NCBI GenBank assembly: GCA_028716365.1
Contig: JAQUPZ010000001.1
Location: 839,393-903,392, forward strand
DNA from: Kiritimatiellia bacterium
GTDB taxonomy: Bacteria > Verrucomicrobiota > Kiritimatiellia > UBA8416 > YA12-FULL-48-11
Reading direction: 5' to 3'
Length of the DNA stretch: 64,000 bases
Shown here: one piece after another, positions 6,967 to 59,474 of the stretch
How positions within the stretch are numbered: position 1 is the first letter of the stretch
Layout of the letters: each line of letters starts with the position of its first letter
Position numbers and translations under genes: made by a program
Notes under the pieces: generated by a model
What the model saw: only the letters and a program-made list of their open reading frames with translations
Told to the model about the DNA's origin: nothing
The model's database searches: none

Positions 6967-9477
6967 ATGAAACTTCGACTTATCCTGCTTGCTATAATAA
7001 TTCAGGTTTTTCCTTTGTATGCAGAACAAGTATTCGATGAGTTTGCAGAGCTGAAGAATGAAATTGTGTCCAGCAAAAACTGGGACAATGGAAGACTGTG
7101 GCGCGAAACCTTGCGGAAAGAAGCATTGATAATGGAAAACGACAGGACTCCCGTGGACATTGTCTGGCGCCGGACACTTGCCCTGTTGGCTGATATCAAA
7201 GCAATGAAGAATGTACCTGACCTTTCAGGTGAAACTGCGGCACTCCAGGCGCTTAAACAGGAGGTGGATGATCTTTACAGACAGAAAGATGTGCCAGAGA
7301 AAACTCAGCTCGCAATTTTCGAGAAAATCACGGCAATCAGGCGAAAGATAGCATTTAAAAACCCCATTCTCGATTTCGACAGGATCATTTTCCTGAAACA
7401 TAACAAGCAGGCAAAAGGTTCTATTCACATGATCGATCAGTACCTTGGTTTTAATGCTGAGAAAAAAGGCGGTGTTTATGTACTGGAGAAAGCTTTCAGT
7501 GATGCTCCGATATTGAAAAGTCTGACGAAAGATTTTCCGGTTGAAAAGGGAAGACTGAAAGGGCGCAGGCTTGAAGACAATGGATCATTTATTTCCCTTG
7601 AACTTGATTATGACGCCAGAACAATACTGTTTGGTTTTACCGAAGCCGAGGAAATTTCCAGGAATCGGGACTACAATACGCAGATGTATACCGAGGAAGA
7701 ATTACTTAAACGCATGCCGGGATACAAGACCTACTACTTCTGTCCTGAAACTACTTATCATGTTTTCAAGGCCAATGTCGATGGTTCGAATCTGCAGCAA
7801 TTGACGGATGGCAAATGGAATGAGTTTGACCCGGTCTTCCTGCCAAACGGCAGAATTGTTTTTGTGTCGGAGCGTGCGGAAGGTGCATGCCGGTGCGGTG
7901 CGAGACCTTTACCGTCTGCCACGCTGTTCTCGATGATGCCTGACGGCAGTGATATCATTCAGCTGAGCTGGCATGATACCAATGAATGGCATCCGAGCGT
8001 GGATAATAACGGCATGATTGTTTATACCCGGTGGGATTACGTGGACCGGGATTCCGATATTGCCCATCACATCTGGCATTGTTTTCCTGACGGCCGCGAT
8101 CCGAGGTCCCTGCATGGTAATTACCCTGAAATCCGTGAATTAAGGCCGTGGATGGAAATGTCCATTCGCGCCATTCCTGATTCGTCAAAATATGTAGCGG
8201 TTACTTCCCAGCATCATGGGCAGGCTTATGGGTCATTAATAATGATTGATTTACGGGAAAAGGATGATCGCAGTACTGCTCAATTGAAGAGAATTACCCC
8301 GGAAGCGCCTTTTGCTGAATCCGAATCTCTGCCCGGTGTTCCTTATAAAAAGGGGAAGAGGACAATAGCCGGCGAACGGTATGGTGCTCCGTGGCCTTTA
8401 AGTGACGATTATTACTTGTGTGTTTATGATCCGAAATGCTCCAAGTACGGGATTTATCTGGTAGACAGTTTTGGGAATCGGGAAATGATTTATTATGACC
8501 CGGCGACTTCATGCCTGGACCCGATACCTCTGAAACCACGAAATCGACCTCCAGCAATTCCAGTCAAGACAATACAGGCCAAGGTTGACCAGCCTGCAGG
8601 TAATGTGGATCTGTCGACGGGGAAGATTGCGGTAATGAATATTTATGAGAGCGAATTTGAATGGCCGAAGGATATAAAAATCAGGGAATTACGTATTGTA
8701 AATATTTTTCCGAAAGACAATTCAATCGCAGATGATCCGAATGTCGGAAAGGCCCGGCAATCGCTTTGTCGCGGGGTACTTGGGACCGTACCCGTTGGAG
8801 AGGATGGTAGTGTATATCTCGAGGTGCCTACAGGAGCAGGTATTTATTTCCAGGCGCTGGATGAAAATGGAATGGCAGTACAAACGATGCGTTCAGACAC
8901 GTATGTGCACCCCGGCGAAACCCTGACCTGTATTGGTTGCCACGAGTCTAAATATAATATCATGAGTAATAAGGAGCGGCAGATTCCCATGGCACTGAAA
9001 CGCCAGCCATCGAAACTTAAATCGGAATGTGAAGGTTCTTATCCATTGACATTTTCCAGATTGGTCCAGCCGGTTCTAAATAAACATTGCGTTACCTGCC
9101 ATGACCAGAAGAAAAAGGCGCCGAATCTTCATGGTGATGTTTTCACTTCTCATGGATGGTCACAGGCGTTTATGTCGCTTCAAAAATATGGCTGGGGAAG
9201 AAGCGGCGGGAATGGGATAATTTTCAGCGAAGGACGGCAGTATTCAATCCCAGGGCAGGACTGTGCAAGAGTTTCAAAGCTCTATGACCTGCTGAAGCGC
9301 GGGCATAACGACGTAAAGCTTTCACCAGAAGAACTGCGACGCATTACCCTGTGGATAGACTGCAACAGCAATTTCTACGGTGCATATCATGATATTGAGA
9401 AACAGGCAAAGGCTGAAATAGTAAAACCAAAATTCGGCGTACCTGACTGGACAGAGTTTGAAAAAATAGTGCGCTAA
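6967..9477 (+). CDS. Secreted PD40/TolB-like beta-propeller di-heme (2x CXXCH) protein, HzsA-like family, paralog 1
   Basis: A signal peptide follows the ATG at 6967, which has a good SD. It carries CIGCH and CVTCH motifs. Motifs shared with the three paralogs include TRWDYVDR, YLVDxFGN, DPIPLKPRNRPP, TVPVGEDGS, YFQALD..MRSDT and WIDCN...Y. Confidence 0.75.
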   Translation: MKLRLILLAIIIQVFPLYAEQVFDEFAELKNEIVSSKNWDNGRLWRETLRKEALIMENDRTPVDIVWRRTLALLADIKAMKNVPDLSGETAALQALKQEVDDLYRQKDVPEKTQLAIFEKITAIRRKIAFKNPILDFDRIIFLKHNKQAKGSIHMIDQYLGFNAEKKGGVYVLEKAFSDAPILKSLTKDFPVEKGRLKGRRLEDNGSFISLELDYDARTILFGFTEAEEISRNRDYNTQMYTEEELLKRMPGYKTYYFCPETTYHVFKANVDGSNLQQLTDGKWNEFDPVFLPNGRIVFVSERAEGACRCGARPLPSATLFSMMPDGSDIIQLSWHDTNEWHPSVDNNGMIVYTRWDYVDRDSDIAHHIWHCFPDGRDPRSLHGNYPEIRELRPWMEMSIRAIPDSSKYVAVTSQHHGQAYGSLIMIDLREKDDRSTAQLKRITPEAPFAESESLPGVPYKKGKRTIAGERYGAPWPLSDDYYLCVYDPKCSKYGIYLVDSFGNREMIYYDPATSCLDPIPLKPRNRPPAIPVKTIQAKVDQPAGNVDLSTGKIAVMNIYESEFEWPKDIKIRELRIVNIFPKDNSIADDPNVGKARQSLCRGVLGTVPVGEDGSVYLEVPTGAGIYFQALDENGMAVQTMRSDTYVHPGETLTCIGCHESKYNIMSNKERQIPMALKRQPSKLKSECEGSYPLTFSRLVQPVLNKHCVTCHDQKKKAPNLHGDVFTSHGWSQAFMSLQKYGWGRSGGNGIIFSEGRQYSIPGQDCARVSKLYDLLKRGHNDVKLSPEELRRITLWIDCNSNFYGAYHDIEKQAKAEIVKPKFGVPDWTEFEKIVR

Positions 9478-9490
9478 TGAAAGGGTAATA

Positions 9491-10492
9491 ATGAAAAAAG
9501 GCATAGGTACCGGTTGTTTCTTCATTTCGACAATATTGGTCTGTTTGAATCTATTAGCTGCCGAATCTACTGAGCAATCCCAGCCAATTCAGACCGGTAA
9601 AGGGCATCATTTTGTATGCACGGATTATTCGCAGGGTAAGGTGTTCATTGTTTCTCCAGAAGGAAAGGCTGAATGGGAATACCCGGCAAAGAGTTGTAAT
9701 GATATCTGGGTACTTCCTAACGGGAACCTGCTTTTCAATACCGGGAATGGTGTACAGGAGGTAACGCGCGACAAGAAAGTGGTGTTTAACTACATCGGTT
9801 CACCGGTCAAGAAGACCATCAAACAGAAGGACGGGACAACAAAGGATGTCGAAAGTCCTTCAGAAATCTACGCCTGCCAGCGTCTTGCCAACGGCAACAC
9901 ATTTGTCGGTGAATGCAATTCCGGTCGTCTTCTTGAAATTGAACCATCGGGAAAGATCGTGAAAGAAATAAGAATGCTTCCCGAGGGGAAGGATGGCGGC
10001 CATGCATATATAAGGAATGCCCGCGTTTTGGCAAATGGCAACTACCTTGTTTCTCATTATGGCGAACAGGTGGTGAAAGAATATGATCCGCAGGGAAAGA
10101 TTGTCAGGGAAATTCCGGCTGTTGGAGGACCGCACAGCGCCATCAGACTGCCGAACGGTAACACGCTTATCGCATGCGGTGACAGAAAAGACGGTTCGAG
10201 GGTATTTGAAGTTGATAAGGAAGGCAAAACCGTCTGGGAAGTCAAGGGTGACGAATTACCAGGGATCAGTCTGAAGTTCATGGCCGGTCTTCAGAGATTA
10301 CCGAATGGAAATACAGTTATGTCCAATTGGCTGGGACACGGACAGTTTGGCAAGTCACCGCACGTCATTGAGGTCACGCCGGACAAGAAAGTTGTCTGGA
10401 CTTTTGCCGATCACAAGACCATGAGGACCGTTTCCAGCTTGCAGATGTTGGATGTCCCCGGCGACGTGACGAAAGGTGAGATAATTCACTGA
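9491..10492 (+). CDS. Secreted six-bladed beta-propeller repeat protein (hypothetical)
   Basis: It has a signal peptide and five repeats of an (V/R)LxNGNxL motif spaced about 50 aa apart. Confidence 0.5.
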   Translation: MKKGIGTGCFFISTILVCLNLLAAESTEQSQPIQTGKGHHFVCTDYSQGKVFIVSPEGKAEWEYPAKSCNDIWVLPNGNLLFNTGNGVQEVTRDKKVVFNYIGSPVKKTIKQKDGTTKDVESPSEIYACQRLANGNTFVGECNSGRLLEIEPSGKIVKEIRMLPEGKDGGHAYIRNARVLANGNYLVSHYGEQVVKEYDPQGKIVREIPAVGGPHSAIRLPNGNTLIACGDRKDGSRVFEVDKEGKTVWEVKGDELPGISLKFMAGLQRLPNGNTVMSNWLGHGQFGKSPHVIEVTPDKKVVWTFADHKTMRTVSSLQMLDVPGDVTKGEIIH

Positions 10493-13560: not shown

Positions 13561-13696
13561 GTATTAATAACCCGGCAATTTATTTTTTCAATTTATGAAT
13601 CTCTAGCAAAATCGTTCTGACATTTTTTGCCGTTGACAGTTGTCATATTGGGGCGTCACAATCCTCCAGCAAAGTCAGATTAGAGGTCTAATTCTA

Positions 13697-15073
13697 ATGA
13701 TGTCCGGGAAAACGATTATTTGTGGATTATTGTTTGTCTGTTTTGCCGCTGAGATTGCTTATGGTCAGCCCAAGGACGATGGTTATCGCGGTATCTGGTA
13801 TTATAATCAGCCATCAAAAGACGAGTATCACTACAAATACAGTGGCGGGTTTGCAACCTATCCACAACAGATGTCACCCTATGCCTATTACGCAAAAGAG
13901 GTTAACAAAACCTTTTTCTGTTATGGCGGACGACCGGGCGGTACAAATGTTCTGCTCCATATGGTCAGTTTTTACGACCATGCCACCGGTCAGGTTCCGC
14001 GTCCGACAATACTGTTGAACAAAAAAACCGACGATGCCCATGATAATCCTACCATCATGCTCGACGACGCCGGTTATGTATGGATTTTTTCCGCATCCCA
14101 CGGTACCGCGCGCCCGTCGTGGATCCACCGCAGTAAAAAGCCTTATTCGGTGGATGAATTTGAACAGATCATTGAAACCAATTTTTCGTATACTCATCCT
14201 TGGTGGATACCCGGGAAAGGTTTTCTTTTTCTCCATACCCGCTACAAGGCCGGCCGGGGACTGTTCTGGATGATCAGTACGGACGGCGTGAAATGGGAAG
14301 AACCGCAAAGCCTTGCGCACATCGAGATGGGCGATTACCAGGTCGCCTGGCGTTGTGGCACACGGCTGGCCAGCGTGTTTGATTATCATCCGAAACCAGT
14401 CGGTCTTAACGAACGTTCGAACATCTACTATGTTGAAACTGCCGATTACGGTAAAACATGGCGTACTGTTGCAGGTGAACTGCTGAAGTTGCCGCTGACC
14501 GAAGCAAAAAACCCGGCGCTGGTTTTGGATTCGCGTTCTGAAAGGAAGGTTGTGTATAACAAGGACGTTAACTTTGACGCTGATGGACGGCCTGTAATTC
14601 TTTACATGACGAGTACGGGATACGAATCAGGTCCGAAGAACGGTCTGCGTTATTGGTACACAATGCGTTGGACCGGCAGAGAATGGGTATGCCGGCCGTT
14701 TACAACGAGTGATCATAACTACGATCACGGCTCACTTTACATCGAACCCGACGGTACGTGGCGGATTATCGCTCCGACTGAACCCGGTCCTCAGCCGTGG
14801 ACCACTGGCGGAGAGATGGTGCTTTGGACCAGCCGCGACCAGGGCACAACATGGATAAAAGTAAAACAACTTACCCGTAACAGCCGCTTTAACCACACCT
14901 ACGCCCGGCGTCCCGTCAATGCTCATCCTGGCTTCTATGCCTTCTGGGCCGACGGTAACACGCTGGGAAAGTCCGATTCCTGTCTCTACTTTACAAACAA
15001 AGACGGTGACCATGTCTGGCGATTACCGACGGTAATGAGCGGCGAGTTTGAAAAGCCGGAAGTGGCCTGGTAG
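13697..15073 (+). CDS. Secreted BNR-repeat sialidase-like beta-propeller protein
   Basis: A signal peptide is present. BNR motifs occur (SRDQGTTW, ADYGKTW, STDGVKW). Confidence 0.55.
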   Translation: MMSGKTIICGLLFVCFAAEIAYGQPKDDGYRGIWYYNQPSKDEYHYKYSGGFATYPQQMSPYAYYAKEVNKTFFCYGGRPGGTNVLLHMVSFYDHATGQVPRPTILLNKKTDDAHDNPTIMLDDAGYVWIFSASHGTARPSWIHRSKKPYSVDEFEQIIETNFSYTHPWWIPGKGFLFLHTRYKAGRGLFWMISTDGVKWEEPQSLAHIEMGDYQVAWRCGTRLASVFDYHPKPVGLNERSNIYYVETADYGKTWRTVAGELLKLPLTEAKNPALVLDSRSERKVVYNKDVNFDADGRPVILYMTSTGYESGPKNGLRYWYTMRWTGREWVCRPFTTSDHNYDHGSLYIEPDGTWRIIAPTEPGPQPWTTGGEMVLWTSRDQGTTWIKVKQLTRNSRFNHTYARRPVNAHPGFYAFWADGNTLGKSDSCLYFTNKDGDHVWRLPTVMSGEFEKPEVAW

Positions 15074-15084
15074 GACTCTTCAAG

Positions 15085-17592
15085 ATGTTGAAGCAAATAG
15101 GGACAATATTATTCGCGATTGTTCTGTGTGCGTTTTCGATTCATGCCGCGGATACAACGAATGCGGCAGCAGTACCGAACTTTGACAGCCTGCGGATGGT
15201 GATTCAGGACCTGGGTTCGACATTTCCCCTTGAGTATGAAGGCGTGACATTGAGTAATGAATTCAAGGGGCTTGAAAGTGAATACCGGCATATTCAGAAT
15301 CAGGCAGATCGAGATGCTTTCGCGCAGAAGTACGAGGCATTTTCACGCAGGGTTTTACTGTCGAACCCGTTGTTAATAAAAAATCCGGTGCTGTTTGTGG
15401 TACGACGCCAGTACAAACCGGACCATCACAATACCGAAACCATGTTCCAGACCGGCGAAATAAATACGAAAAGTTTCCAGGGTGGCGGGGCATTGAAGGT
15501 CATCGATTTTAAAAAAGGCGGTGATGTCAGAACTTTGCTTGCTGTTGAAAAAGGTGTGATTCGCGATCCGGATGTGCATTTTGACGGCAGGAAAATTCTC
15601 TTCTCAATGCGAAAAGATATCGACGATAATTATCACATCTACGAAATAAACTCCGATGGTACTGGTTTGAGACAGATTACATCGGCGAAAGGCGTGTTCG
15701 ATATTGATCCGATTTATCTGCCTGACGAAAGCATTGTTTTCTCTTCATCCCGTGAACCGAAGTTTTGCATGTGTAACAGACATATCATGGGAAATCTATT
15801 CAGGATGGATTCCGATGGTGCCAACATTCACCAGATCAGCAAGAACACGCTGCATGACGGGCATGGCTGGCTGATGTCTGACGGAAGAATCATGTATGAC
15901 AGGTGGGAATACGTCGACAGGAACTTTGGCGATGCGCAGGGATTATGGACCGTGAATCCAGACGGGACACAGCACCTGATTTACTGGAAAAACAATACAG
16001 GCAGTCCGGGTGTGGCGCTTGATGGTCACGATATTCCGGAAACCCAGCAGCTGTTATGTGTTTTTTCGTCATGTCACGATCGTCCATGGGGAGCGCTGGC
16101 TCTGGTTGACAGAAGGCTGGGGTTGGATGGACGTCCGCCGGTTGTGCGTACATGGCCAGCTGATGCCGTTAATCTGATAAATGTCAATGGTAGCTTTGAT
16201 GCTTTTCGAAAAGTTAAATTAAAATTTGAAGATCCGTATCCTCTGAGCAGTAAGTATTTCATATGTTCCCGGATGACTGGAAAAGGCGAAGAGATGGGGC
16301 TTTACCTGGTTGATATTTTCGGCAACGAAATCCTTCTGCATGTTGAGGAACCGGCCTGTTTTGATCCGGTCCCGCTGGCGCCGCGTCACCGCCCGCCGGT
16401 CATTCCTTCGAAAAGGGATTACGAAAACAAGGAAGGCGTCCTTTTTGTACAAAACGTTTATCTCGGCACACACATGGAAGGAGTAAAACCCGATACAGTC
16501 AAGTTTCTCCGTGTAATCGAGTCGGGTGAAAAGAGATCATGGAGCCATCCATGCTGGTTTGGTCAGGGCGCGGAAGCGCCTGGTATGAACTGGCATGATT
16601 TTGGTAACAAGAAAATCCTTGGAACAGTTCCGGTGGAGGATGACGGGTCAGCATGTTTTTCCGTACCCAGCGACAGGTTTATTTTTTTCCAACTGTTGGA
16701 TAAAAATTACATGATGATCCAGTCGATGCGCAGCGGAATGGTTGTACAGTCCGGCGAGAGAACGGGTTGTATCGGATGTCACGATGAACGCCGCAGTGCG
16801 CCGCCACTGGCAAAGGCCGACACATTAAAGGCATTGAAAAGGGAACCAAGCAGATTGGAAGGATGGAACGGACCGCCTCGGTTCTTTAATTACATAACTG
16901 AGGTCCAGCCTGTTTTTGACAAGCATTGCGTCAGTTGCCATGATTTTGATAAGCCGGATGGAAAAGTCCTCAACCTGTCCCGTGACCGTGGAATGATTTT
17001 TAATGTTTCGTACCATGAATTATGGACCAAAAAACAGATCAAGGTTGTGGGTGCTGGTCCGGCGGAAATCCAGCAGGCATATTCCTGGGGATCACATGCA
17101 AGTCGATTAGTGGGAGTACTTGCCAAGGAACATGGAGAAGTGAAGTTAACCAGAGAAGAAAAAGACCGGATTATTACATGGGTTGATCTCAATGCACCGT
17201 ATTATCCGGAATTTGATACAAATTTTCCCAACAATCTTTATGGTCGTGCCCCGCTTAGTGGCCAGCAGGTAAAGCGTTTGTTTGAACTTACAGGTGTAAA
17301 TTGTGATGAAAGAAAACATGCCATGGATGTCTGTTTCGACAGACCAGAGGTCAGCCCCTGTCTTGACAAGTTTTCAGACAGAAATGATCCTGTTTATAAA
17401 GAGGCCCTGGCAATCATTGCGGAAGGAAAGAAAATCCTGACAGAAAATCCTTCCGCAGAAATGGCGAATTTCAAGCCCTGTGAGGATCATCAGAAACGAC
17501 AGGATAAATATACAGTACGTCTGGCAATCGAACAGCGTAACCGCGAAGCAATCCGCACCGGGAAAAAGTTGTACGACAAAGATATCAATTAG
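15085..17592 (+). CDS. Secreted PD40 beta-propeller di-heme (2x CXXCH) protein, HzsA-like family, paralog 2
   Basis: A signal peptide is present. It carries CIGCH and CVSCH. The family motifs are conserved (RWEYVDRNFGD, YLVDIFGNE, DPVPLAPRHRPP, TVPVEDDGSA, FFQLLDKNYMMIQSMRS, WVDLNAPYY). Confidence 0.8.
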   Translation: MLKQIGTILFAIVLCAFSIHAADTTNAAAVPNFDSLRMVIQDLGSTFPLEYEGVTLSNEFKGLESEYRHIQNQADRDAFAQKYEAFSRRVLLSNPLLIKNPVLFVVRRQYKPDHHNTETMFQTGEINTKSFQGGGALKVIDFKKGGDVRTLLAVEKGVIRDPDVHFDGRKILFSMRKDIDDNYHIYEINSDGTGLRQITSAKGVFDIDPIYLPDESIVFSSSREPKFCMCNRHIMGNLFRMDSDGANIHQISKNTLHDGHGWLMSDGRIMYDRWEYVDRNFGDAQGLWTVNPDGTQHLIYWKNNTGSPGVALDGHDIPETQQLLCVFSSCHDRPWGALALVDRRLGLDGRPPVVRTWPADAVNLINVNGSFDAFRKVKLKFEDPYPLSSKYFICSRMTGKGEEMGLYLVDIFGNEILLHVEEPACFDPVPLAPRHRPPVIPSKRDYENKEGVLFVQNVYLGTHMEGVKPDTVKFLRVIESGEKRSWSHPCWFGQGAEAPGMNWHDFGNKKILGTVPVEDDGSACFSVPSDRFIFFQLLDKNYMMIQSMRSGMVVQSGERTGCIGCHDERRSAPPLAKADTLKALKREPSRLEGWNGPPRFFNYITEVQPVFDKHCVSCHDFDKPDGKVLNLSRDRGMIFNVSYHELWTKKQIKVVGAGPAEIQQAYSWGSHASRLVGVLAKEHGEVKLTREEKDRIITWVDLNAPYYPEFDTNFPNNLYGRAPLSGQQVKRLFELTGVNCDERKHAMDVCFDRPEVSPCLDKFSDRNDPVYKEALAIIAEGKKILTENPSAEMANFKPCEDHQKRQDKYTVRLAIEQRNREAIRTGKKLYDKDIN

Positions 17593-31475: not shown

Positions 31476-31544
31476 TATTAAATTCTGCCTGTTACGGTGT
31501 TTAACGATTGTCCTAATTGTAAAGAACCTCACTCTTCCTGGGAG

Positions 31545-35437: not shown

Positions 35438-36172
35438 ATGAAGTTCAACCGTGGTCTGGTCAGTATTGTTGCGTCTATTGGTCTTCTGCATGGTATTTGC
35501 GTTGCACAGACAAATTCGCTCGCCACAACGTCGGTGGGCAAGGAAAATGAAGCGTGGTGGAAAAAAAGACATGAGGCCAAGGTTGAACTGGCGAAGCAGG
35601 GCAATGTGGATCTTCTTTGGATAGGTGATTCAATAACTCACGGATTTGAAGGCGGTGGCAAGGCCATGTGGGAAAAGTATTACGCACCGCGCCATGCACT
35701 GAATATTGGCTTCAGTGCCGACAGAACGGAACATGTACTGTGGCGGCTGGATAATGGCGAAATAGATGGGATTTCTCCGAAGCTGGCCATCATAATGCTT
35801 GGCACAAACAATACCGGTCACCGCAAGGACAAACCCGAGGAAATAGCGGAAGGCATAAAACTTATTTGTGAAAAACTGCGGACAAAACTGCCGAACATGA
35901 AGGTCCTTGTTCTCGGAATCTTTCCCCGCGGCGAAAAATCGACTGATTTTGGCAGGATGAATAATGATGAGGCGAATAAACTGATTGCCAAACTGGTGGA
36001 CGACAAGAATATTTTCTTCCTGAATATCAATGACAAGTTTCTTGGACCTGATGGTGTTCTTTCAAAGGAAATCATGCCGGATTTCCTGCATCCCAATCCC
36101 AAGGGTTACCAGATTTGGGCAGAAACGATTGAACCTACCGTAGCGAAGCTGATGGGTGAAGAGAAGAAATAG
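35438..36172 (+). CDS. SGNH/GDSL hydrolase (esterase/acetylesterase)
   Basis: A signal peptide is present. The GDSIT block I ([11 protein letters not shown]) and block III (GTNN) are present. Confidence 0.75.
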
Positions 36173-40808: not shown

Positions 40809-41364
40809 GGTGGAAGAGAAAGAACTCATAATCAAGTCCCAGCAGGGCGATATTGATGCCTTTTCCGGACTGGTCAAACTGTATCAGGGAAATATTCGCG
40901 CGTGTCTTGCTGTACGCCTTACTAATACCTTTGAAGCTGACGATCTGGCCCAGGAGACGTTCATTGTGGCTTTCCGTAAGATAAATGACTTTGATTCTAC
41001 CCGTCCATTTGGCCCATGGCTGAGATCGATAGCGTTCAACCTGCTCCGCAATTTCTGGCACAAGCATAAAGCGGAACCCGTTGGCCATTCAGAGGAACTT
41101 GCCCTGCTGGTGGACGAGCACATTGCCCTGAATTATTCGGAGCGGAATGAACTGAATGCACTTAATACCCTGCGTGAATGCATGAAGAAACTCGACGAGT
41201 CGATGCGCAGGCTCGTTGAATTGCGTTACCATGAGAATCTCCCGCTGGCTGATCTTATGAAGAAGCTGAATATAAATCATTCCACTCTGACCATGCGCCT
41301 TCACCGTGTAAGGTTTTCGCTGAAGCAGTGCGTGGAGACCAATCTCGAAGGTGTTTCTTCATGA
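40792..41364 (+). CDS. ECF-type RNA polymerase sigma-70 factor
   Basis: Sigma region 2 (DDLAQETFIVAF) and region 4 (LRYHENLPLADLMKKLN) are present. The gene overlaps the next gene by ATGA. Confidence 0.8.
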   Translation: MERYIEVEEKELIIKSQQGDIDAFSGLVKLYQGNIRACLAVRLTNTFEADDLAQETFIVAFRKINDFDSTRPFGPWLRSIAFNLLRNFWHKHKAEPVGHSEELALLVDEHIALNYSERNELNALNTLRECMKKLDESMRRLVELRYHENLPLADLMKKLNINHSTLTMRLHRVRFSLKQCVETNLEGVSS

Positions 41365-45432: not shown

Positions 45433-46005
45433 ATGAGTAAATTTGTTGCTGGTATGGTTTGGGTGGTTTTCCTTTGCCTTTCCTGTGCCTGGGCAGGTGA
45501 CAATACCGAAATGAAAATTCAGAATCTTGTTGCCGTGTCCGGAAAAGTCTATGTCAGTGGTGTTGGTAATTTTAAAGCTGGAATGAAGCAGTATATTGAT
45601 AGGGACTACATCTTTGACTACATACCGGCTTTTCTTCAGGGTGCCACTCATATTCTAACTGCCGGCAATGACAAGTTCATTGACGAAGAAAAACCATGTT
45701 TAAGCTTCGAAGTAAATATTCCTGTCTCCGTTTACATTGTTTATGGCGACAAACTGCGTGTTATTCCCTCATGGCTGAAGGAATTTGAGGATACGCGATG
45801 GAAAGTAACGCGAAAAGACTCCAATGCCACTACTTTGAAGGGTATTTTTACGCTTTTCCGGAAAGATTTTTCTGCTGGAAAAATTACTCTGAATGGGAAC
45901 CTGTCGAAGGCAATGGCAAATGACCCGGAATTCAAGAAGATGAAGGGTGGTACCTTTTGCATGTATACTGTTGTCGTTGTCCCTAAAAGCAGCCGTCAGG
46001 AGTAG
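45433..46005 (+). CDS. Small secreted hypothetical protein
   Basis: A signal peptide is present (cleavage after AWA). A good SD (GGAGGAG-like) lies upstream. Confidence 0.5.
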   Translation: MSKFVAGMVWVVFLCLSCAWAGDNTEMKIQNLVAVSGKVYVSGVGNFKAGMKQYIDRDYIFDYIPAFLQGATHILTAGNDKFIDEEKPCLSFEVNIPVSVYIVYGDKLRVIPSWLKEFEDTRWKVTRKDSNATTLKGIFTLFRKDFSAGKITLNGNLSKAMANDPEFKKMKGGTFCMYTVVVVPKSSRQE

Positions 46006-52565: not shown

Positions 52566-55295
52566 TCAGTGTTTCATTGAGACCAGATCGCGGCGTGGAT
52601 TTTCCCAGGCCTTATTGACAGCGGTTTCGATGAGTTGAAGAATGCTTTTATAGTCTGAATCATCCTGGTTTTTGTAAACCGATTGTCCACATTTGTCCGT
52701 ACCACCCATATTTTTAGCAAGAGGTGCTTTTAGAAACAGGCTTTTTGCAGGGTTGTAAATATCGATCCAGTCCAGGCGCGAGATTTCAGAGGGTTTGTGG
52801 CATGTAACACAGCGCTTTTCATGTACAGCAGCGATCTGTTTTGCCAGTTCCATGTCGGCGGCAAGATCGTAAGCTGGTTGTTTGGGCCTCTTGTTAACAA
52901 AATGGTCATGATATGGCGCATTGGAATCTATCCACATTGTCAGTCGCAACCTGTCTTCAGCACTTAGCTTTACACGTTTGGCATGGGGTTCTTTGTTGAG
53001 CACATCAATGAGTTTGCTTTTATGTGAGCCATAGGCCAGCGGCGGCGTAACGGTTGCATCCTGCTTGCGTGCTGGTGAACACGAGACAAGGTCGTTGGCC
53101 ATGATGGTTGCATAGGCGCGGTTGTAGCCGTAGCCCGGTACTGCCAGGTCAAAGGATGTCAGGCCGCCGCAGAAATTCAAACCACCGGCTGGTTTCAATC
53201 CGCCATGACACCGCACGCAGTGCCAGTCGAGTACCGGCTGGACATCGCGCAGGAAATTGACTGTCCGGTCGCCCCATGGCGGAGGAATTAGATCAGATGG
53301 GGGTCGTTGCGCAGCAAGCGGAACAGGAGCGAGGCGCGGTACGATATTACGCGTTTCGTGGCAGCCGGCGCAGGAACGGCGTTCACCGGGTTGGAAGCTG
53401 ATGAAACTGCGCATACGGCGGAGTTCCATATGGTTCTGATCGAGCAATTGAAAATATACTGCCGTGTCCATCGGCACGCGGAAGTGCGCGCTGCCGTCGC
53501 GTTCGACAGGCACATCGCCGAGAATACGCACGGGTGTCCAGTTATCGAGAATACGCTTTTCACCGCTCGGTTTCTGACAGTTGTGGTCTTCGACATATCG
53601 CTGGCCACCGTGCTGGTTGTCGTATGGCCAGCCAACCGGCTCGGCGATGCGGAGATAGCGAATACGTTCCGGGGCTATGCCGTTACAGCCAAAACTCGCG
53701 TCACTGACAACACACGTTGCGTATGGTACATTCAAGTCCACGAGTTCAGGCAGTACGGGTGGACGCGGCCGGGCACGCAGAGGGATCGGTATAAAACACG
53801 AAATGTCCGGATCACGATAGAGCAGTTCCTTCGTGCCGAAAACATCAATGAGATACAGTGCATAACCTTTTGGATCAACTTCGCTCGCCAGTCCTGTCTT
53901 GCCGGTGCCATAACTGTAGGAAACAAGAAAAGTTTTTGCTGAGAGCGGCCACGGATACATGTAAAAGCCGCCCCGGTCGAACGCGCCACCTTCCTGCACT
54001 GGTACGCCGTCCATGCCGCCTTCGGGTGGTTTTACGCCGGGAGTAACGATGCCGATACCGCGTGGTTCGTTAATGCCGGGCGCGGTGTCAATGATTACCA
54101 CCGGCCCGGCAGCAAGTGTGTGGTGTCCGGTGGCGATGGCGACGAGTTTACGAATACTGGGAATTGAACGGACCTCTTCCAGTGCCCACGGGTTGGTAAA
54201 ATGCTGTTTGAATATCGCATCTGCGCCGGTACCGTCGGGCCGGATAAACCACAGCGACTGGATAAACGCGAAACTGCGTTCGTGATATTCCCAGCGAGTG
54301 TAGCCGATGGTACCATCATCAAGCGTGTGCGGCAGGTAGTCACCGTCTTTGTTGACACTGAGCCTACGGATACCACTGCCATCGGGTCGCATGACATAAA
54401 GATTACAACTGGTTTCATCCTTGTCGTATTCATTGCACTGGAGCGACGTACCACAACGTTCAGAGACGAATACGATGTCACCGTTGGGCGCATAGGTCGG
54501 GTCGAGATCACTCCACTCTCCGCTGGTAATCTGTCGTAGCCGGCTGCCATCCGTGCCAACCTCGAAGATGTGAATGGGCTCTTCCGAGCGCCGCAAGTCA
54601 TAATTTGTCCGGCGATCAAGCCAGCCTTCCGGTGGTTCATTACTTTTTGCCTTTGCGTAACCAAATACTATGCGACTGCCATCCCACCAGAGATCCATGC
54701 CGTGGACATGTCCCGGTCCCAATGTGCCCTTAAGAATATTTTTAGTTTGTGGCTTATTTTCCGGTCCAGTCATGGAGAGAATGCACAAATCTCCTCCGGG
54801 CCGGGAAACCCATGGCATGTGGTTCAGGCAGACATCAGGATAAGTCTGCTGCCCGAAACGTTTCACGAACAGGAGGCGATCGAAATTTAGCAATGGATTT
54901 CGGAAGGCAAGCCGGCGAAACGTCCAGCGGACATTAAGATAAAGCGCCTTCTGTGCATCGATAGAAGCAGTATTAGAAGATTGTGATGCTGCAACGCTGA
55001 ACTCTTGATCGTTAAACTCCTGTTCAAACGAAGTTGTATCAATACCCTGCTTTTTGAGATCAGCTGCCAGTAAACGTCCCCGTTCGATAAAATAATGAAT
55101 AGGTTTTTCGAATTCCGATTTCTGCTGTGCCACTCCAGTGGTATTGGTTTGTATTGAAGTAATTGGATCCCAGGCTTTGGCTTGCTTCAACCAGTCGTCT
55201 TCTATCTGGTCACGCATTGATGTTGCTGCCTGATTGATCCCGGCGGCGAACAGCATGCTGATGAGGAACAAGACATTTACTTTACATTTATTCAT
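52566..55295 (-). CDS. Secreted PD40 beta-propeller multi-heme (3x CXXCH) protein, HzsA-like family, paralog 3
   Basis: A signal peptide is present. CAGCH, CVRCH and CVTCH are present. Family motifs are conserved (TRWEYHERS, YLIDVFGTKELLY, IPIPLRARPRPP, DVPVERDGSAHF, YFQLLDQNHMELRRMRS, WIDSNAPYH). Confidence 0.8.
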   Translation of the reverse strand: MNKCKVNVLFLISMLFAAGINQAATSMRDQIEDDWLKQAKAWDPITSIQTNTTGVAQQKSEFEKPIHYFIERGRLLAADLKKQGIDTTSFEQEFNDQEFSVAASQSSNTASIDAQKALYLNVRWTFRRLAFRNPLLNFDRLLFVKRFGQQTYPDVCLNHMPWVSRPGGDLCILSMTGPENKPQTKNILKGTLGPGHVHGMDLWWDGSRIVFGYAKAKSNEPPEGWLDRRTNYDLRRSEEPIHIFEVGTDGSRLRQITSGEWSDLDPTYAPNGDIVFVSERCGTSLQCNEYDKDETSCNLYVMRPDGSGIRRLSVNKDGDYLPHTLDDGTIGYTRWEYHERSFAFIQSLWFIRPDGTGADAIFKQHFTNPWALEEVRSIPSIRKLVAIATGHHTLAAGPVVIIDTAPGINEPRGIGIVTPGVKPPEGGMDGVPVQEGGAFDRGGFYMYPWPLSAKTFLVSYSYGTGKTGLASEVDPKGYALYLIDVFGTKELLYRDPDISCFIPIPLRARPRPPVLPELVDLNVPYATCVVSDASFGCNGIAPERIRYLRIAEPVGWPYDNQHGGQRYVEDHNCQKPSGEKRILDNWTPVRILGDVPVERDGSAHFRVPMDTAVYFQLLDQNHMELRRMRSFISFQPGERRSCAGCHETRNIVPRLAPVPLAAQRPPSDLIPPPWGDRTVNFLRDVQPVLDWHCVRCHGGLKPAGGLNFCGGLTSFDLAVPGYGYNRAYATIMANDLVSCSPARKQDATVTPPLAYGSHKSKLIDVLNKEPHAKRVKLSAEDRLRLTMWIDSNAPYHDHFVNKRPKQPAYDLAADMELAKQIAAVHEKRCVTCHKPSEISRLDWIDIYNPAKSLFLKAPLAKNMGGTDKCGQSVYKNQDDSDYKSILQLIETAVNKAWENPRRDLVSMKH

Positions 55296-55304: not shown

Positions 55305-58300
55305 TTAGTCTTCTTCCACAATTATACGGAATCCAACGTTGTAAACCCGTTGAAACTGACGGTAAGGCAGGCGGAAGCTTGAGGTACATCGGAATGGCCG
55401 GTCATACCATGAACCGCCGCGGACAACGCGTTCGGTGCCGGCAGGAACATCTTCAACCTGGTTCCGTCCATCATCATCTTTATATGGATAAGGTTTGTAA
55501 GTAGATCTGGTCCATTCCCAGGCGTTGCCATGCATATCGTGAAGACCCCATGGATTTGGTTTATATTTGCCGACTAATTCTGTCACAAAACCTCCGTCAT
55601 TAAACCTGGTGTCATGTGGTATCCAGTCATCATATTTGCCTGGATTTTTATATGCGGCAGCCTTCCAGTCCTGTGTATATGGATTACCCGCGAAATAGGA
55701 CAACATCTTATCGCCGAGATTGGCGAACAGCGAAAAATCGGTGTTGATATCACCGTACCAGAATTGGGAGGACGTACCCGCGCGACAGGCCCATTCCCAT
55801 TGTGCTTCTGTTGGTAGAGTTACTTTCTTGCCTGTTTTCCGGGAAAGCCATTTACAAAAAGCCATAGCTTCTTCCCATGATATGCGTATTGCAGGTTGAT
55901 CCGGCTGGTCCTGATCATAACCGGTGATCCCGAACTGATAGCCATGCCGGTCTTCATTCCGGCTTTCGTGTTTTGGATTGAACTGCAGGTACATGGCATT
56001 TGAGATCTCAACTTTGCTCATCCAAAATCCCTTCTTGATTTTTACCAGCGTTGCGGGACTCTCGTCAAAATGACCGGCAGTACTGCCCATAATAAATTCA
56101 CCTGCAGGTATCCACACGAGATTTGCAAAGGCCGGGTTTTCATTTAGAAGGTAAACAGTTCTACCTGGATTTTTTTCCGTCTTTTTGCACCAGACTTCTT
56201 TCCTGTCCACATCAAACAGGGAAACCGTAACGCCGGCCAGGCGTTCCATGGCGCAATCTGTTCGATTCCATATGACTAAACGTTCAATGGTTGTAACAGC
56301 GCCGAGGTCAACTTCCCACCATTCGTTTTCTCCATTGCCGGTATGGGCTAGGGAATTTTTCGCATATTCACCATCTGTATTTCCATCAACAGCACGGCTT
56401 GCCGAACAAACCCCGTAAGTGCTGGACTGTGTTGCCTTTTTCCCGACGGCAATGTTCTGTCCGCCGGCAAAAACCTGTACTTCTGCAAAATTCATCCAGC
56501 GGTTGGGGCCGGCAGTTATACGGACATAGCGGCATTGAATCGGGGTTTGTTTTTTGTCTGCCAGTGACAAATTCAGAATTCCGGAAGTACCTGATGGAAC
56601 AGTCTCTTTTTGTTTGGTTACAGCGACTGCCGTATCGAAAGGCCAACCGGAAGCGTTTTCGGTTGTTAACTGTTGCCTGCCCGAGCCGATGCTCGGTGTC
56701 GGCCAGGGATTTTTGATTTCGGATGGCTTGACTGGTGTGGAATCATATTCTGGCGTTTCAGGAATTTCTTCGTAGTTGGGGAAAGGACCCATAGATACGT
56801 ATTTCCTTCGAAACTCCTGTGCACGACCCACCACGGTTTTAACGTGAGGTTGTTTGTCGAACGGAGGGATCTCGCCCCAGGTGCCATAATAGGGAGCATT
56901 CATGTCTGTCCACGCTGTCAACCGTTCCCATGATTCTGCATCGATCTGGACACCATGATGACCTTTTCGAAGAATCTGGCCGAGTTCTGTGGAACTGAAA
57001 TGGAAATCCATGGAAGAAAACATCCGGCGATCACCTTCAATACCGGCCCGGCGTACAAATCGCTGGAGTTCAAAATAAGTTTTGGTGAATTTGCCGCCGC
57101 CGCCCCAGTGTCCGGACTGCTGGGTTTGCCAGTCTGTCAACATTTCGTCGCCTTTAAAGTTTGGTATTGGGTTGCCGTCATTTGTCTTGAGATCTTTAGA
57201 ACCGTGACATCCTGTGCAGTACCTGTTCAAGACGGGTTGAACTTCCCGCATAAAACTGAACCCGCGTGTTGGTCCATACCACGATTTGATTGTGGAAGGT
57301 TTGTTTCTAGCCGCTGACGAAGAATGGGTGATCGGGGCCTCAATTGGTGATTCATGACAGCCAATGCAGGAGACATTTTCGCCCGGCATGGCAGTGAGCC
57401 ATGAACGCATCAACTGAAGGGCCTGGCCTTTTTCGTCAAGCGGCTGAATTGCCAGCGGCGTGTTTGCCGGGATGATGAAATATGCGGAGCCGTCAGGTTC
57501 AACCGGGACTGTTCCGATTATGCGCTTGATGTCCCAGGGACCATCGAAGCCGAGAGTTCCGTAAAGCCCGCCCATTCCGCGGTGAGAGAAATAGTATTCA
57601 TATATTCTGAGTCGTTTGACTGTTCCGCGCGCCACGCCTTCAAGGCCGGGACCGGCATGGATATCGATTATATGAGCAGTAGCGGTGTCAATGGCGAGAT
57701 TGATACGCGGCGGTATGGTGATAGGTTCTGTAGTTTTCTGAACAGCAATCGGTTGTAAAAGGGCGGAACCTTCAATTTCTTTGATGAGCGTCAGGTTGTC
57801 GAAAGTGTCTGCCAGATAGATACCCCAGAGACCATCGGATTGCAGCATTATTGATACGATATGGTATTTCTCGCTTAGCGGAAATGGAGTCAGGAATTGC
57901 GGCCAGACACCATTTACAAGGGTGTCTCTGACCAGCGGTTCTGTGTGTTTACCGTAGCCGGGGATTTCCTGGACTATTCCATCTCCATCACGCTGGCCCT
58001 GTGCCGGATCGAGAATTAACAGTCTACCGGCCCGTGCAACACCATGATGGCCTGATGCTATTCCTATTATATGCCGTGGGTTGCCGGGGAGGGGACGGGC
58101 ATAAAAGAAGGAACCAGGGAAGAATGATCCGCTCCGGGAATAAGCGCGCTGATCGGTTCCATCAGGGTTCATGTGGAAAATCATGCGCGAATTGGCATGG
58201 GCGGCATCCGTGTATTCCCAGCGCTGGTATAGAATGCGACCGTTGGGAAGCACAACAGGACTCCAGTCGTGCTCCTGTTCGAATGTCAACTGGCGGATTG

Positions 58301-59474
58301 TGCCGGAACGCGTATCGAGGCGGTAGAAGTTGGCTATATGTGAACTACCAAAAACACATGGTACGCCAAGAAAAGTGGCGGTGGAACTGAAGAGAATATC
58401 TCCTCCCGGAAGATAACAGCCTTCATAATTATCAACATCATTGTCGATATTTGGCGTGACCTGGCGCAGGTTTTTTCCATCGAGTCCGATCTCAAACACC
58501 TGGTAGCAGCCGTTTGTACCTATTGAAGAAAAGAGAAGCCGGTCGGCATTGAAATGAAGACAAAGGTCACCTGCAAATCCACCATCGCCCGGTTTATAAA
58601 GTGTGGTTAATTTTGCTTCAGGATCCTTCAGGGACATGGACATAATTTCATTGTCGTAACCTTTTTTGGGTAATGAACTATTACCCTGCCAGTTTTGCGG
58701 CAGGCCCGGATGGCCTGAGAGTCCGCGACGGACTAAAATTATTTTATCAAATTCCAGAAGTGGATTAGCGAGCAGGGCAGAACGTACAGCGTTAGCCAGC
58801 TTGTCTGCTTCTGCAAGTGCCTCTGGTTCTGATTCCTTTAATGACTGTAATAGGACATCACGTTTCTGTTTGAATTCATCTAGGCTCTTCAGATGGGGCG
58901 TTGCATTGTATTTATCCGGCCATGTCTTCGCCATGTCGAAAATGGCGCGACCAACTGCCTCGATGTTTATGGATTCGATGCGGCGGATGGTGTCGCTGAA
59001 TTGCATGGATTTCCTGTAAATCTCCCGTACCTGCATCAGTTGGGTTAGGGATGTTGTGGATTCAGCTATTGTTGTTGCTTCCTTTGTTAAGGTTGCGTTG
59101 CAGGCACGGACATAACGCCGGGCCAGTTCACGGAAATCACCCGGTTTCCAGTCGGCGGACCAGACCGTGGTTATCTCGGTTTTGTATAACCGGTCTTTCA
59201 GCATTTCGGGGAAATCACGTTTCAACATGTTGGAAAGCTGTTCGCGTGCATTACGAAGTTGAGTTTGTGCTTTTATATCATCGGCCTTGACTGGAGCCTG
59301 GCTGGCAAGCGCTTCCCGGGCGGCACGCATCGTTTCCAGCCAGGTATCTTTTTTTTCGTACCAGGATGGGTCTTTGGCGAGGGCAGGGGTTGACGTCATC
59401 ATGATAATGGTTATTGCAATGAGAAAAGCCATGATGTCCTTTAATCTCTGGAGAGTAATTCTGCCGTATTTCAT
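55305..59474 (-). CDS. Secreted HzsA-like PD40 beta-propeller di-heme protein (paralog 4) fused to an F5/8 discoidin domain and a C-terminal FGE-sulfatase (SUMF1-like) domain
   Basis: A signal peptide is present. CIGCH and CTGCH are present, with the family motifs. The discoidin-like block is at approx nt 56234-56684. The FGE-like block is at approx 55305-56180 (LPTEAQWEWACRAG, NPWGLHDMHGNAWEWT, RGGSWYDRPFRC, GFRII). The start codon overlaps the IclR stop (ATGA). Confidence 0.75.
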   Translation of the reverse strand: MKYGRITLQRLKDIMAFLIAITIIMMTSTPALAKDPSWYEKKDTWLETMRAAREALASQAPVKADDIKAQTQLRNAREQLSNMLKRDFPEMLKDRLYKTEITTVWSADWKPGDFRELARRYVRACNATLTKEATTIAESTTSLTQLMQVREIYRKSMQFSDTIRRIESINIEAVGRAIFDMAKTWPDKYNATPHLKSLDEFKQKRDVLLQSLKESEPEALAEADKLANAVRSALLANPLLEFDKIILVRRGLSGHPGLPQNWQGNSSLPKKGYDNEIMSMSLKDPEAKLTTLYKPGDGGFAGDLCLHFNADRLLFSSIGTNGCYQVFEIGLDGKNLRQVTPNIDNDVDNYEGCYLPGGDILFSSTATFLGVPCVFGSSHIANFYRLDTRSGTIRQLTFEQEHDWSPVVLPNGRILYQRWEYTDAAHANSRMIFHMNPDGTDQRAYSRSGSFFPGSFFYARPLPGNPRHIIGIASGHHGVARAGRLLILDPAQGQRDGDGIVQEIPGYGKHTEPLVRDTLVNGVWPQFLTPFPLSEKYHIVSIMLQSDGLWGIYLADTFDNLTLIKEIEGSALLQPIAVQKTTEPITIPPRINLAIDTATAHIIDIHAGPGLEGVARGTVKRLRIYEYYFSHRGMGGLYGTLGFDGPWDIKRIIGTVPVEPDGSAYFIIPANTPLAIQPLDEKGQALQLMRSWLTAMPGENVSCIGCHESPIEAPITHSSSAARNKPSTIKSWYGPTRGFSFMREVQPVLNRYCTGCHGSKDLKTNDGNPIPNFKGDEMLTDWQTQQSGHWGGGGKFTKTYFELQRFVRRAGIEGDRRMFSSMDFHFSSTELGQILRKGHHGVQIDAESWERLTAWTDMNAPYYGTWGEIPPFDKQPHVKTVVGRAQEFRRKYVSMGPFPNYEEIPETPEYDSTPVKPSEIKNPWPTPSIGSGRQQLTTENASGWPFDTAVAVTKQKETVPSGTSGILNLSLADKKQTPIQCRYVRITAGPNRWMNFAEVQVFAGGQNIAVGKKATQSSTYGVCSASRAVDGNTDGEYAKNSLAHTGNGENEWWEVDLGAVTTIERLVIWNRTDCAMERLAGVTVSLFDVDRKEVWCKKTEKNPGRTVYLLNENPAFANLVWIPAGEFIMGSTAGHFDESPATLVKIKKGFWMSKVEISNAMYLQFNPKHESRNEDRHGYQFGITGYDQDQPDQPAIRISWEEAMAFCKWLSRKTGKKVTLPTEAQWEWACRAGTSSQFWYGDINTDFSLFANLGDKMLSYFAGNPYTQDWKAAAYKNPGKYDDWIPHDTRFNDGGFVTELVGKYKPNPWGLHDMHGNAWEWTRSTYKPYPYKDDDGRNQVEDVPAGTERVVRGGSWYDRPFRCTSSFRLPYRQFQRVYNVGFRIIVEED

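Follow-up and report, generated by a model that had tools for sequence, protein, structure and literature searches.

The window examined here is a stretch of 64,000 nucleotides from the genome of a Kiritimatiellia bacterium (assembly GCA_028716365.1, contig JAQUPZ010000001.1, positions 839,393 to 903,392), and it carries four genes, P1 to P4, whose products are related to HzsA, the alpha subunit of hydrazine synthase. The original prediction had described four paralogous open reading frames (ORFs) at this locus, all of which are present exactly as given there, and for P1 the start in the NCBI annotation leads to the same 836-residue call. The four genes and the CxxCH haem-binding motifs that they encode are as follows.

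6967..9477, + strand: P1, HzsA-related di-haem protein, 836 aa (Pfam HZS_alpha 80.9 bits, E 1.1e-22)
8929..8943, + strand: P1 haem-1 motif, CIGCH
9088..9102, + strand: P1 haem-2 motif, CVTCH
15085..17592, + strand: P2, HzsA-related di-haem protein, 835 aa (Pfam HZS_alpha 105.5 bits)
16768..16782, + strand: P2 haem-1 motif, CIGCH
16927..16941, + strand: P2 haem-2 motif, CVSCH
52566..55295, - strand: P3, HzsA-related tri-haem protein, 909 aa (Pfam HZS_alpha 78 bits)
53358..53372, - strand: P3 haem-1 motif, CAGCH
53205..53219, - strand: P3 haem-2 motif, CVRCH
52797..52811, - strand: P3 haem-3 motif, CVTCH
55305..59474, - strand: P4, 1389 aa (Pfam HZS_alpha 112.8 bits, F5_F8_type_C_2 54.2 bits, FGE-sulfatase 152.9 bits)
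57354..57368, - strand: P4 haem-1 motif, CIGCH
57204..57218, - strand: P4 haem-2 motif, CTGCH

Pairwise similarity between the four proteins is far beyond chance, with 26-32% identity over 573-782 aligned columns in BLASTP (E 3e-57 to 2e-88), and the motifs RW[ED]Y, YLxDxF, VPVxxDGS, QxLD, MRS and WxDxN are colinear across P1-P4. Most of the colinear motifs listed in the original prediction are shared by all four, the one departure being DPxPLxPRxRPP, which is absent from P4 only. Signal peptides had also been assigned to all four and agree with what is seen: judged by inspection rather than by a dedicated predictor, the N-termini look Sec-like, with 1-4 basic residues ahead of a hydrophobic stretch of 12 residues (mean hydropathy 2.5-3.0), and export to the periplasm is predicted on this basis. 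Orthologues in other phyla are up to 60% identical for P1, 72-76% for P2, 75-84% for P3 and 72% for P4; the best one for P1 comes from a Lentisphaerae metagenome-assembled genome (MAG), and P2 orthologues across phyla range from 57 to 76%. Since these orthologues are much closer than the paralogues within the window, P1-P4 represent four old subfamilies and a recent tandem duplication was ruled out. All four belong to the 'HzsA-related protein' family and diverged from one another long ago.

The proposed resemblance to HzsA in architecture was borne out by alignment, profile searches and structure prediction alike. All four proteins match Pfam HZS_alpha (PF18582) with 78-113 bits (E 1e-22 to 1e-33), the gathering score being 26.6 bits. 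When a profile of P2 and its relatives was compared with all PDB sequences, HzsA was the sole multi-domain match (5c2v_A, E 1.9e-31), and this match is colinear over the propeller, the middle domain and the C-terminal haem domain. An AlphaFold2 model of P2 (predicted local distance difference test, pLDDT, 82.8; predicted template modelling score, pTM, 0.85) gave the same chain, 5c2v_A, as top Foldseek match (E 2.4e-28, 788 columns, template modelling (TM) scores 0.57/0.62). P1-P4 share the three-domain HzsA fold, the parts of each being, in order, a predicted signal peptide, a helical N-terminal region, a six-bladed beta-propeller of the TolB/Tricorn type, the HZS_alpha middle domain, which is a beta-sandwich, and a cytochrome c-like domain.

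This domain order is shared with HzsA of Kuenenia stuttgartiensis (kuste2861; PDB 5C2V/5C2W), the sole full-length structural match, in which both haem motifs are kept: in HzsA as in P1-P4 the HZS_alpha middle domain ends in CxxCH and the C-terminal haem c domain ends in a WxDxN/G helix. However, the identity between P1-P4 and HzsA is just ~18%, and the RWEY, His331 and MRS signature described below is found in the HzsA-related family and absent from HzsA. The N-terminal helical region, as well as lectin, formylglycine-generating enzyme (FGE)-like or third-haem domains, come in addition to what HzsA has, and the host here is a heterotroph whereas that of HzsA is an anammox bacterium. With the N-terminal propellers of TolB and Tricorn the propeller fold alone is shared, TolB having no haem domains; against NCBIfam TolB (TIGR02800, cut-off 343) P1-P3 score 16.6-31.6 bits and P4 gives no match. 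Among the closest systems are also propeller dehydrogenases with a built-in cytochrome domain, such as quinohaemoproteins and the fungal AA12-AA8-CBM1 pyranose dehydrogenase, which oxidises L-fucose.

P1-P4 are 'orphan alphas' and not hydrazine synthases. Against the NCBIfam equivalog hydrazine_alpha (NF052339), which has a cut-off of 800, they score 60.1, 54.6, 43.7 and 48.4 bits respectively. In HzsA, Tyr591 is the proximal haem ligand while the motif His is diverted to a Zn site (PMC12758564). The HzsA sequence at haem 1 reads CSGCHYGSY, with Tyr591 four residues past the CxxCH His; at the equivalent position P1-P4 have Y, R, N and I respectively, and of 297 homologues just 4 have Tyr there. 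Given that Tyr591 is not conserved, ordinary His ligation of haem 1 is expected. Furthermore, HzsA carries ALT where the HzsA-related family has MRS, and alignment of P2 propeller residues 242-419 to HzsA gave no match for an equivalent of Cys303. No HzsB/C-like (beta/gamma) partner gene is found within the 64-kb window, nor does any other ORF within it contain a CxxCH motif. In the light of the missing beta/gamma partner and of the loss of the special haem ligation of HzsA, we conclude that P1-P4 very probably make no hydrazine.

The motifs themselves are conserved, as at least two CxxCH were present in all 338 homologues examined, and covalent haem attachment in P1-P4 is predicted from them. 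The spacing between the haem 1 and haem 2 motifs shows medians of 50-53 residues in three homologue sets. Two or three motifs near the C-terminus of a di-haem family had been anticipated, and the numbers hold, with two motifs in P1, P2 and P4 and three in P3. The location does not hold for P4, whose motifs are mid-protein because ~630 more residues come after them, and the term di-haem, which suits P1, P2 and P4, is incomplete since P3 belongs to a conserved tri-haem subfamily (three CxxCH in 119 of 120 orthologues). The C-terminal tail of P2 aligns with the third haem domain of P3 with the motif lost, as a haem-less remnant. A His is present in the loop of these proteins that aligns with the distal His772 of HzsA, so haem 2 is probably bis-His ligated as it is in HzsA. 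Pfam CCP_MauG (PF03150; di-haem cytochrome c peroxidase / MauG) has no match in P1-P4 at E <= 0.01; it was found as an added domain in one of 40 long family representatives.

We next consider the residues that set the family apart. A signature defined in this analysis (Y271, R273, W274, Y276, H331, D342, M548, R549, S550 and E558, in P2 numbering) is nearly universal among 617 family sequences and present in all of P1-P4. The full 11-residue pattern occurs in 332 of the 617, the commoner variants deviating at one or two positions, and Met548 is ~93% conserved in the family. In L039_6448_9348, an alpha-like sequence encoded beside a beta/gamma-like gene, ALT replaces MRS and C230, Y271, R273, Y276 and D342 are also changed. 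This block-wise loss suggests that the signature residues of the propeller and of the middle domain form one site, which by analogy with HzsA would be a pocket at haem 1. Cys230 of P2 as a haem ligand or cross-link was rejected, the position being occupied by Phe, Tyr, Asn or Gly in about one quarter of the 617 sequences.

P4 carries two domains in addition to its HzsA-related di-haem core. Both are recognised by Pfam and had gone unremarked in the original prediction.

56154..56435, - strand: P4 F5/8 type C / F-type lectin domain (fucolectin, CBM47-like), aa 1014-1107, assigned by phmmer against PDB
56241..56345, - strand: complete L-fucose-binding motif H-x26-R-x-D-x4-R of P4, aa 1044-1078, HTGNGENEWWEVDLGAVTTIERLVIWNRTDCAMER
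55320..56123, - strand: P4 domain of the FGE-sulfatase fold, lacking the catalytic Cys pair of FGE, aa 1118-1385

The F5/8 type C domain of P4 is an F-type lectin. In phmmer searches against PDB it matched FBP32 (3cqo, E 6.6e-22), the fucolectin-related protein of S. pneumoniae (2j22, 2e-17, also 2j1r), lectinolysin (3le0, 7e-17) and eel agglutinin (1k12, 6e-13). F-type lectins/CBM47 of known structure (1K12, 3CQO, S. pneumoniae SP2159 2J1R and 3LE0) are thus its homologues, with E values from 6.6e-22 to 6e-13, and it contains the complete fucose motif as well. The bacterial F-type lectins SP2159 and lectinolysin are attached to a GH98 glycoside hydrolase or to a pore-forming toxin. No description of an F-type lectin fused to a haem c protein was found in the searchable literature. 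The L-fucose-binding motif of F-type lectins is H-x26-R-x-D-x4-R/K (PMC5297725). In P4-type lectin domains its His and both Arg are present in 37 of 37 and its Asp in 24 of 37, and the full motif makes the domain of P4 a predicted L-fucose binder.

The remaining domain of P4 clearly has the FGE-sulfatase fold (PF03781, 152.9 bits, E 1.6e-44) and reaches ~70 bits against PorK, FGE and PvdO in PDB. In human FGE, C336 and C341 are the catalytic, Cu-binding Cys pair. The corresponding motif of P4, RGGSWYDRPFRCT, has Asp at the C336 position, as do 113 of 114 P4 orthologues, while the C341 position is Cys in just 64 of the 114; in this motif the domain resembles PorK/GldK. Hence the fold is shared with FGE/SUMF1, PvdO, PorK/GldK and the C-domain of EgtB but the Cu-binding Cys pair is lacking, and judged by these residues the domain is not an FGE. 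The database label 'formylglycine-generating enzyme required for sulfatase activity' that P4-type proteins carry is corrected accordingly. Given the many invariant polar residues of its own, the domain probably binds a specific ligand. The fusion of an HzsA-like and an FGE-like part is found in 120 of the 120 best matches to P4 listed and in 16 of the 40 long family representatives.

Among the same 40 representatives the other fusions were to LamG (4), NPCBM (3), F5/8C (2) and CBM6 (1). An N-terminal discoidin domain is present in 102 of 120 P3 orthologues and absent from P3 of the window. In the discoidin domain of the P3 type, His, Arg and Asp of the fucolectin motif are kept, and in 100 of 102 the final Arg has given way to Leu, a systematic variant that perhaps goes with a different sugar specificity. 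In two relatives (P0162 and P0165) a Mal s 1-like propeller lies between the HzsA-like and FGE-like parts, and the same propeller is a separate gene after P1 in the window, which suggests that it works jointly with the HzsA-like protein. In another (P0243) the HzsA-like core is fused to a LanC-like (lanthionine synthetase C) domain. Fusions of the LanC-like and FGE-fold kind hint at thiol or peptide chemistry in some subfamilies.

The family as a whole is large. A profile search of 1.84 billion cluster representatives gave at least 3,076 clusters (50% identity) at E <= 1e-30 and 18,610 at E <= 1e-10, and at least 595 family stretches were confirmed with one genome per species. Among the matches listed, the family is found mainly in bacteria of the Planctomycetes-Verrucomicrobia-Chlamydiae (PVC) group; the hosts are mostly Planctomycetota (Pirellulales, Thermoguttaceae, Sedimentisphaerales, Phycisphaerae), others being Lentisphaerae/Victivallales, Kiritimatiellia, Verrucomicrobiota and Hydrogenedentota, with a few Fibrobacterota and Armatimonadota. 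NCBI product names of relatives are 'HzsA-related protein', 'PD40 domain-containing protein', 'discoidin domain-containing protein' and 'SUMF1/EgtB/PvdO family nonheme iron enzyme'. The family is already catalogued, and since its distant relation to HzsA has been published too it is not a new kind; it is uncharacterised, and no well-characterised enzyme family was found to include it.

Non-anammox HzsA homologues have been divided into clades I-IV, of unknown function and with key residues of hydrazine synthase not conserved (Hägglund et al. 2025, PMC12758564), and the original prediction agrees with that study in stating that the function outside anammox bacteria is unknown. 'hzsA-like' genes were also reported in Phycisphaerae and KSB1 (PMC10732223). 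Hägglund et al. chose alpha homologues adjoining beta/gamma homologues, found clades II and III to be without haem alpha-II, and observed FG-GAP (CRTAC1-like) genes flanking the homologues of clades I-III (PMC12758564). Those clades and P1-P4 are both distant HzsA homologues from Planctomycetota and neighbouring phyla, but P1-P4 are orphans, as are the family members at most related loci (82 of 87), and haem alpha-II is kept in all four of them. Neither paper (PMC12758564, PMC10732223) describes a tri-haem subfamily or fusions to lectin and FGE-like domains. In the searchable literature no function is assigned to HzsA homologues, and no glycan link, fucolectin fusion or FGE-like fusion is described for them. 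What is new relative to HzsA is thus the orphan status, the ordinary haem ligation, an active-site signature of their own, and the tri-haem and lectin/FGE-fold architectures.

The genes that surround P1-P4 in the window were then compared with those of relatives elsewhere. The neighbours that bear on the four paralogues are listed below.

9491..10492, + strand: secreted Mal s 1-like / NHL-like six-bladed propeller (Pfam Mala_s_1-like 77.7 bits), 13 bp past P1
10522..13560, + strand: glycoside hydrolase of family GH95 with an N-terminal LamG domain (Pfam Glyco_hydro_95_cat 565.7 bits)
13640..15073, + strand: BNR_4 (sialidase-fold) propeller protein (Pfam BNR_4 61.8 bits), P2 starting 11 bp later
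59471..60385, - strand: IclR-family regulator (Pfam IclR_C, HTH_IclR), its stop overlapping the P4 start by 4 bp
60402..60425, - strand: strong terminator-like hairpin between fucP and iclR, 10-bp stem with 7 GC pairs and a T-run
60446..61795, - strand: L-fucose:H+ symporter FucP (NCBIfam TIGR00885 292.8 bits, cut-off 280.4)
63107..64000, + strand: partial sulfatase running off the window (Pfam Sulfatase 109.7 bits), 3.6 kb from P4

The gaps in the P1-propeller-GH95-BNR_4-P2 cluster are 13, 29, 79 and 11 bp, and the five genes probably form one operon. With a 4-bp overlap between iclR and P4 and a 9-bp gap between P4 and P3, iclR-P4-P3 is likely a second operon, which adjoins the upstream fucP. 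The paralogues had been said to sit beside GH95, BNR sialidase-like, esterase and sulfatase genes. This is true of GH95 and BNR, which lie between P1 and P2, whereas the esterases (SASA, 28168-30249, and GDSL, 35438-36172) are more than 10 kb from every paralogue and the one sulfatase is partial and 3.6 kb from P4. The Mal s 1-like propeller matched 3no2, a B. caccae protein of unknown function, with E 4e-27 in PDB; as regards the idea of a lactonase, its single-sequence AlphaFold2 model (pLDDT 70) has no matches other than that B. caccae protein, itself uncharacterised, and propellers that are designed or of the NHL type.

Related loci comprised 80 genome loci and 10 looked up individually, with counts made over 81-87 loci; all neighbouring ORFs were clustered and families were counted by gene distance. 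No conserved partner gene emerged, and even the commonest neighbour family was seen at no more than 11 of the 81-87 loci. A beta/gamma-like gene, in which a YVTN propeller is fused to a di-haem cytochrome c peroxidase-like part as in HzsBC, is adjacent in five of 87 loci, the arrangement on which Hägglund et al. had focused (PMC12758564); it stands directly beside the HzsA-like gene in L039 (4601-12379), L043, L071, L073 and L075, the signature being kept in all but L039. GH95 was encountered in 2 of 87 loci; it is directly upstream of one P4-type gene (P0125), and GH29, SASA and GH95 are downstream of another (P0132). An IclR gene is the immediate neighbour in four related loci (L081 and L089/L090 among them; two of the four are the same region from two sources) and never occurs further away. 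Sulfatases are present in 9 of 87 loci with no enrichment beside the HzsA-like gene, for which reason the sulfatase link was dropped.

Unlike paralogues occur in tandem at 11 of the 87 loci and their pairing is not fixed. In L093 the P3 orthologue is preceded by a P1-like and not by a P4-like gene. The P4-P3 arrangement as a conserved pair was rejected, as P4 orthologues have other downstream genes. L085 (1-19786) has three HzsA-like genes less than 20 kb apart, and FGE-like domains are present in two of these; a Ser/Thr kinase-FGE-like fusion, DUF1800, a xylose-isomerase-like TIM barrel and an extracytoplasmic function (ECF) sigma factor are encoded in the same stretch. Altogether, the evidence from fusions is strong and that from neighbourhoods generally weak.

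The original prediction had proposed a redox role tied to the processing of glycans or sulfated glycans. The glycan part is supported, and specifically for fucose, by the lectin domain of P4, fucP, GH95 and the lectin/CBM-like fusions, all read from sequence. The sulfatase part is not supported, given that sulfatases show no enrichment beside the genes and that the FGE-like domain of P4 lacks the catalytic Cys pair. Our reading, which we offer tentatively although it may well be right, is that P1-P4 are haem oxidoreductases that work on their own in the periplasm or at the cell surface, their substrates being borne on glycans or derived from them, and we infer a catalytic pocket at haem 1, an electron relay via haem 2/3 and targeting to fucosylated glycans. 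In such a mechanism each protein would act alone, and the substrate would reach haem 1, a haem c with the usual His ligation, where the propeller meets the middle domain. The pocket would be built from Tyr271, Arg273, Trp274, Tyr276, His331, Asp342, Arg549, Ser550 and Glu558 (P2 numbering), and electrons would pass via haem 2, and in P3 also haem 3, to or from a soluble periplasmic carrier. The F-type lectin, discoidin, NPCBM, CBM6, LamG and FGE-fold modules would hold the enzyme on its target, here possibly a glycan that contains fucose or something that the adjoining GH95 and BNR enzymes release from one, and expression of P4-P3 would be set by the co-transcribed IclR regulator.

Several points weigh against this proposal. 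Glycan genes are very common in PVC genomes, so finding them within 10 kb counts for little; GH95 itself is seen at just the two related loci, and P1 and P2 are without a lectin module. Many hosts are rumen or gut fermenters, in which an electron partner is hard to place. The position of the signature residues at haem 1 is derived from co-variation and the architecture of HzsA. Moreover, Met548 as a sixth ligand could make haem 1 an electron-transfer rather than a catalytic haem, and pockets of Tyr, Arg, His and Asp are also usual in haem enzymes whose substrates are small inorganic molecules such as nitrite, hydroxylamine and peroxide.

This possible six-coordination of haem 1 through Met548 leads to an alternative that we consider unlikely, in which the proteins are electron-transfer cytochromes without chemistry of their own, serving periplasmic sugar dehydrogenases (Tat-exported GFO_IDH_MocA, FAD or ThuA-type enzymes; cf. 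3-keto-glycoside pathways). Indeed, no family occurs as a neighbour more often than GFO_IDH_MocA (about 9-11 of 81-87 loci), with 4 of 164 immediately adjacent genes against 6 of 568 genes further away, and GFO genes are also near the relatives P0129, P0125, P0131 and P0470. The window itself holds a GFO gene with a signal for twin-arginine translocation (Tat; 36390-37817), two ThuA genes and an FAD oxidoreductase. However, this GFO gene is ~15-19 kb from the nearest paralogues, adjacency is seen at only ~10% of loci while GFO genes abound in PVC genomes, and a protein of 800 residues with a conserved propeller pocket, many subfamilies and lectin fusions goes far beyond the needs of a shuttle.

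A low probability is likewise given to redox enzymes for small molecules (H2O2, nitric oxide (NO), hydroxylamine, nitrite, sulfur oxyanions) in detoxification or respiration, with the lectins as mere surface anchors. Their Tyr/Arg/His/Asp signature recalls the pockets for acid-base chemistry in haem enzymes of the NrfA or peroxidase type, which favours this alternative, and a cbb3 oxidase subunit adjoins one P4-type locus. HzsA, the sole characterised relative, also speaks for it, as its haem alpha-I is where NO, hydroxylamine and ammonia are handled (PMC12758564). On the other hand, massive paralogy, deep subfamilies and unlike paralogues in one operon are what would be expected of substrate-diverse enzymes and not of a detoxifier; the fucose lectin, fucP, GH95 and the IclR-type regulator point to carbohydrate control, and there are no nitrogen- or sulfur-cycle genes in the window.

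It is very unlikely that the proteins are non-catalytic, that is, a surface or periplasmic haem lectin or scaffold for glycan capture or for haem/iron storage. The lectin fusions, the failure to find a conserved enzymatic partner and the structural role of PorK-like FGE-fold domains elsewhere are all compatible with a scaffold, but ~10 near-invariant polar residues and orthologues that are 57-84% identical across phyla exceed what a scaffold would need.

Modification of proteins or peptides, with the propeller and FGE-fold binding unfolded polypeptides and the haems oxidising them, for instance in sulfatase maturation, is hardly probable either. It would account for the FGE-like domain being the commonest fusion, for the single LanC-like fusion, for the sulfatase-rich PVC phyla among the hosts and for the resemblance of the propeller to TolB, Tricorn and S9 peptidases. 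Against it stand the absence of the FGE Cys pair with a motif like that of the non-enzymatic PorK/GldK, the lack of sulfatase enrichment beside the genes, and P1, P2 and P3, which have no FGE-like domain at all.

Finally, that P1-P4 would be true hydrazine synthase alpha subunits of a cryptic anammox-like nitrogen metabolism in Kiritimatiellae, as the three-domain fold and both haem sites might suggest, is effectively refuted by scores of 44-60 bits against a cut-off of 800, the lack of any HzsB/C-like gene or other CxxCH ORF in 64 kb, the variable Tyr591 position, the family-specific MRS and the host, a Kiritimatiellae MAG, a conclusion that Hägglund et al. also reached for other homologues (PMC12758564).

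The reading of P1-P4 as haem oxidoreductases of glycans can be extended to the whole family, in a form that we regard as doubtful. HzsA-related proteins would then make up a large and so far unrecognised class of redox enzymes of PVC and allied bacteria that depend on haem c and act on carbohydrates, an 'auxiliary activity' on the HzsA fold, whose lectin modules direct subfamilies to different glycans, with P4-type members acting on fucosylated or sulfated fucans and hydrazine synthase being a late specialisation. If true, the P4 type would carry out a redox step on fucans that is beyond the reach of hydrolases and sulfatases, and hydrazine synthase would be a late specialisation of a glycan-processing scaffold. 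The family matters in any case, as it is large, often has several copies per genome, occurs in degraders of the most recalcitrant marine and gut polysaccharides and has no known function. Its members are moreover the nearest relatives of the key anammox enzyme, so that their ancestral function bears on the origin of hydrazine synthesis. The window offers a way in, with a regulator and a fucose-lectin member in one operon beside a fucose permease, and two members with GH95 in the other; it leads to the predictions that fucose is bound, that fucosylated glycans induce the genes and that the breakdown of fucans includes a redox step.

Further genes of the window were noted in passing. A URO-D-family protein is encoded at 5316-6353 (+), 614 bp upstream of P1; it scores 62-69 bits against HemE and MtaA/CmuA cut-offs of 235-303 and might be a corrinoid-dependent methyltransferase, in an anaerobe possibly an O-demethylase for methylated sugars. 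At 950-4207 (-) lies a 1085-aa fusion of a PQQ_2/BamB-like propeller and an S-adenosylmethionine (SAM) methyltransferase, homologues of which were found at most 10 kb from family members in 3 of 80 loci. A ThuA + FG-GAP fusion (37881-39998, +) stands beside the second ThuA gene (40029-40808, +), more than 12 kb from any paralogue, and given the FG-GAP flanks in clades I-III a link to HzsA-like proteins is possible. At 40708-42956 (+) an ECF sigma factor is followed by an anti-sigma protein of the FecR type that carries LamG at its C-terminus, and the two are likely a glycan-sensing pair; one HzsA-related family representative is fused to a FecR domain. Three ORFs of 606-985 aa and one of 190 aa (25192-28149, 31497-33317, 43049-45418 and 45433-46005, all +) are apparently secreted and have no Pfam match at E <= 0.01. 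Divergent from fucP are a secreted xylose-isomerase-like TIM barrel (62051-63043, +) and the partial sulfatase (63107-64000, +), the latter with a weak, below-threshold match to a Tat signal. The TIM-barrel family recurs near P4- and P3-type orthologues (L085, L094).

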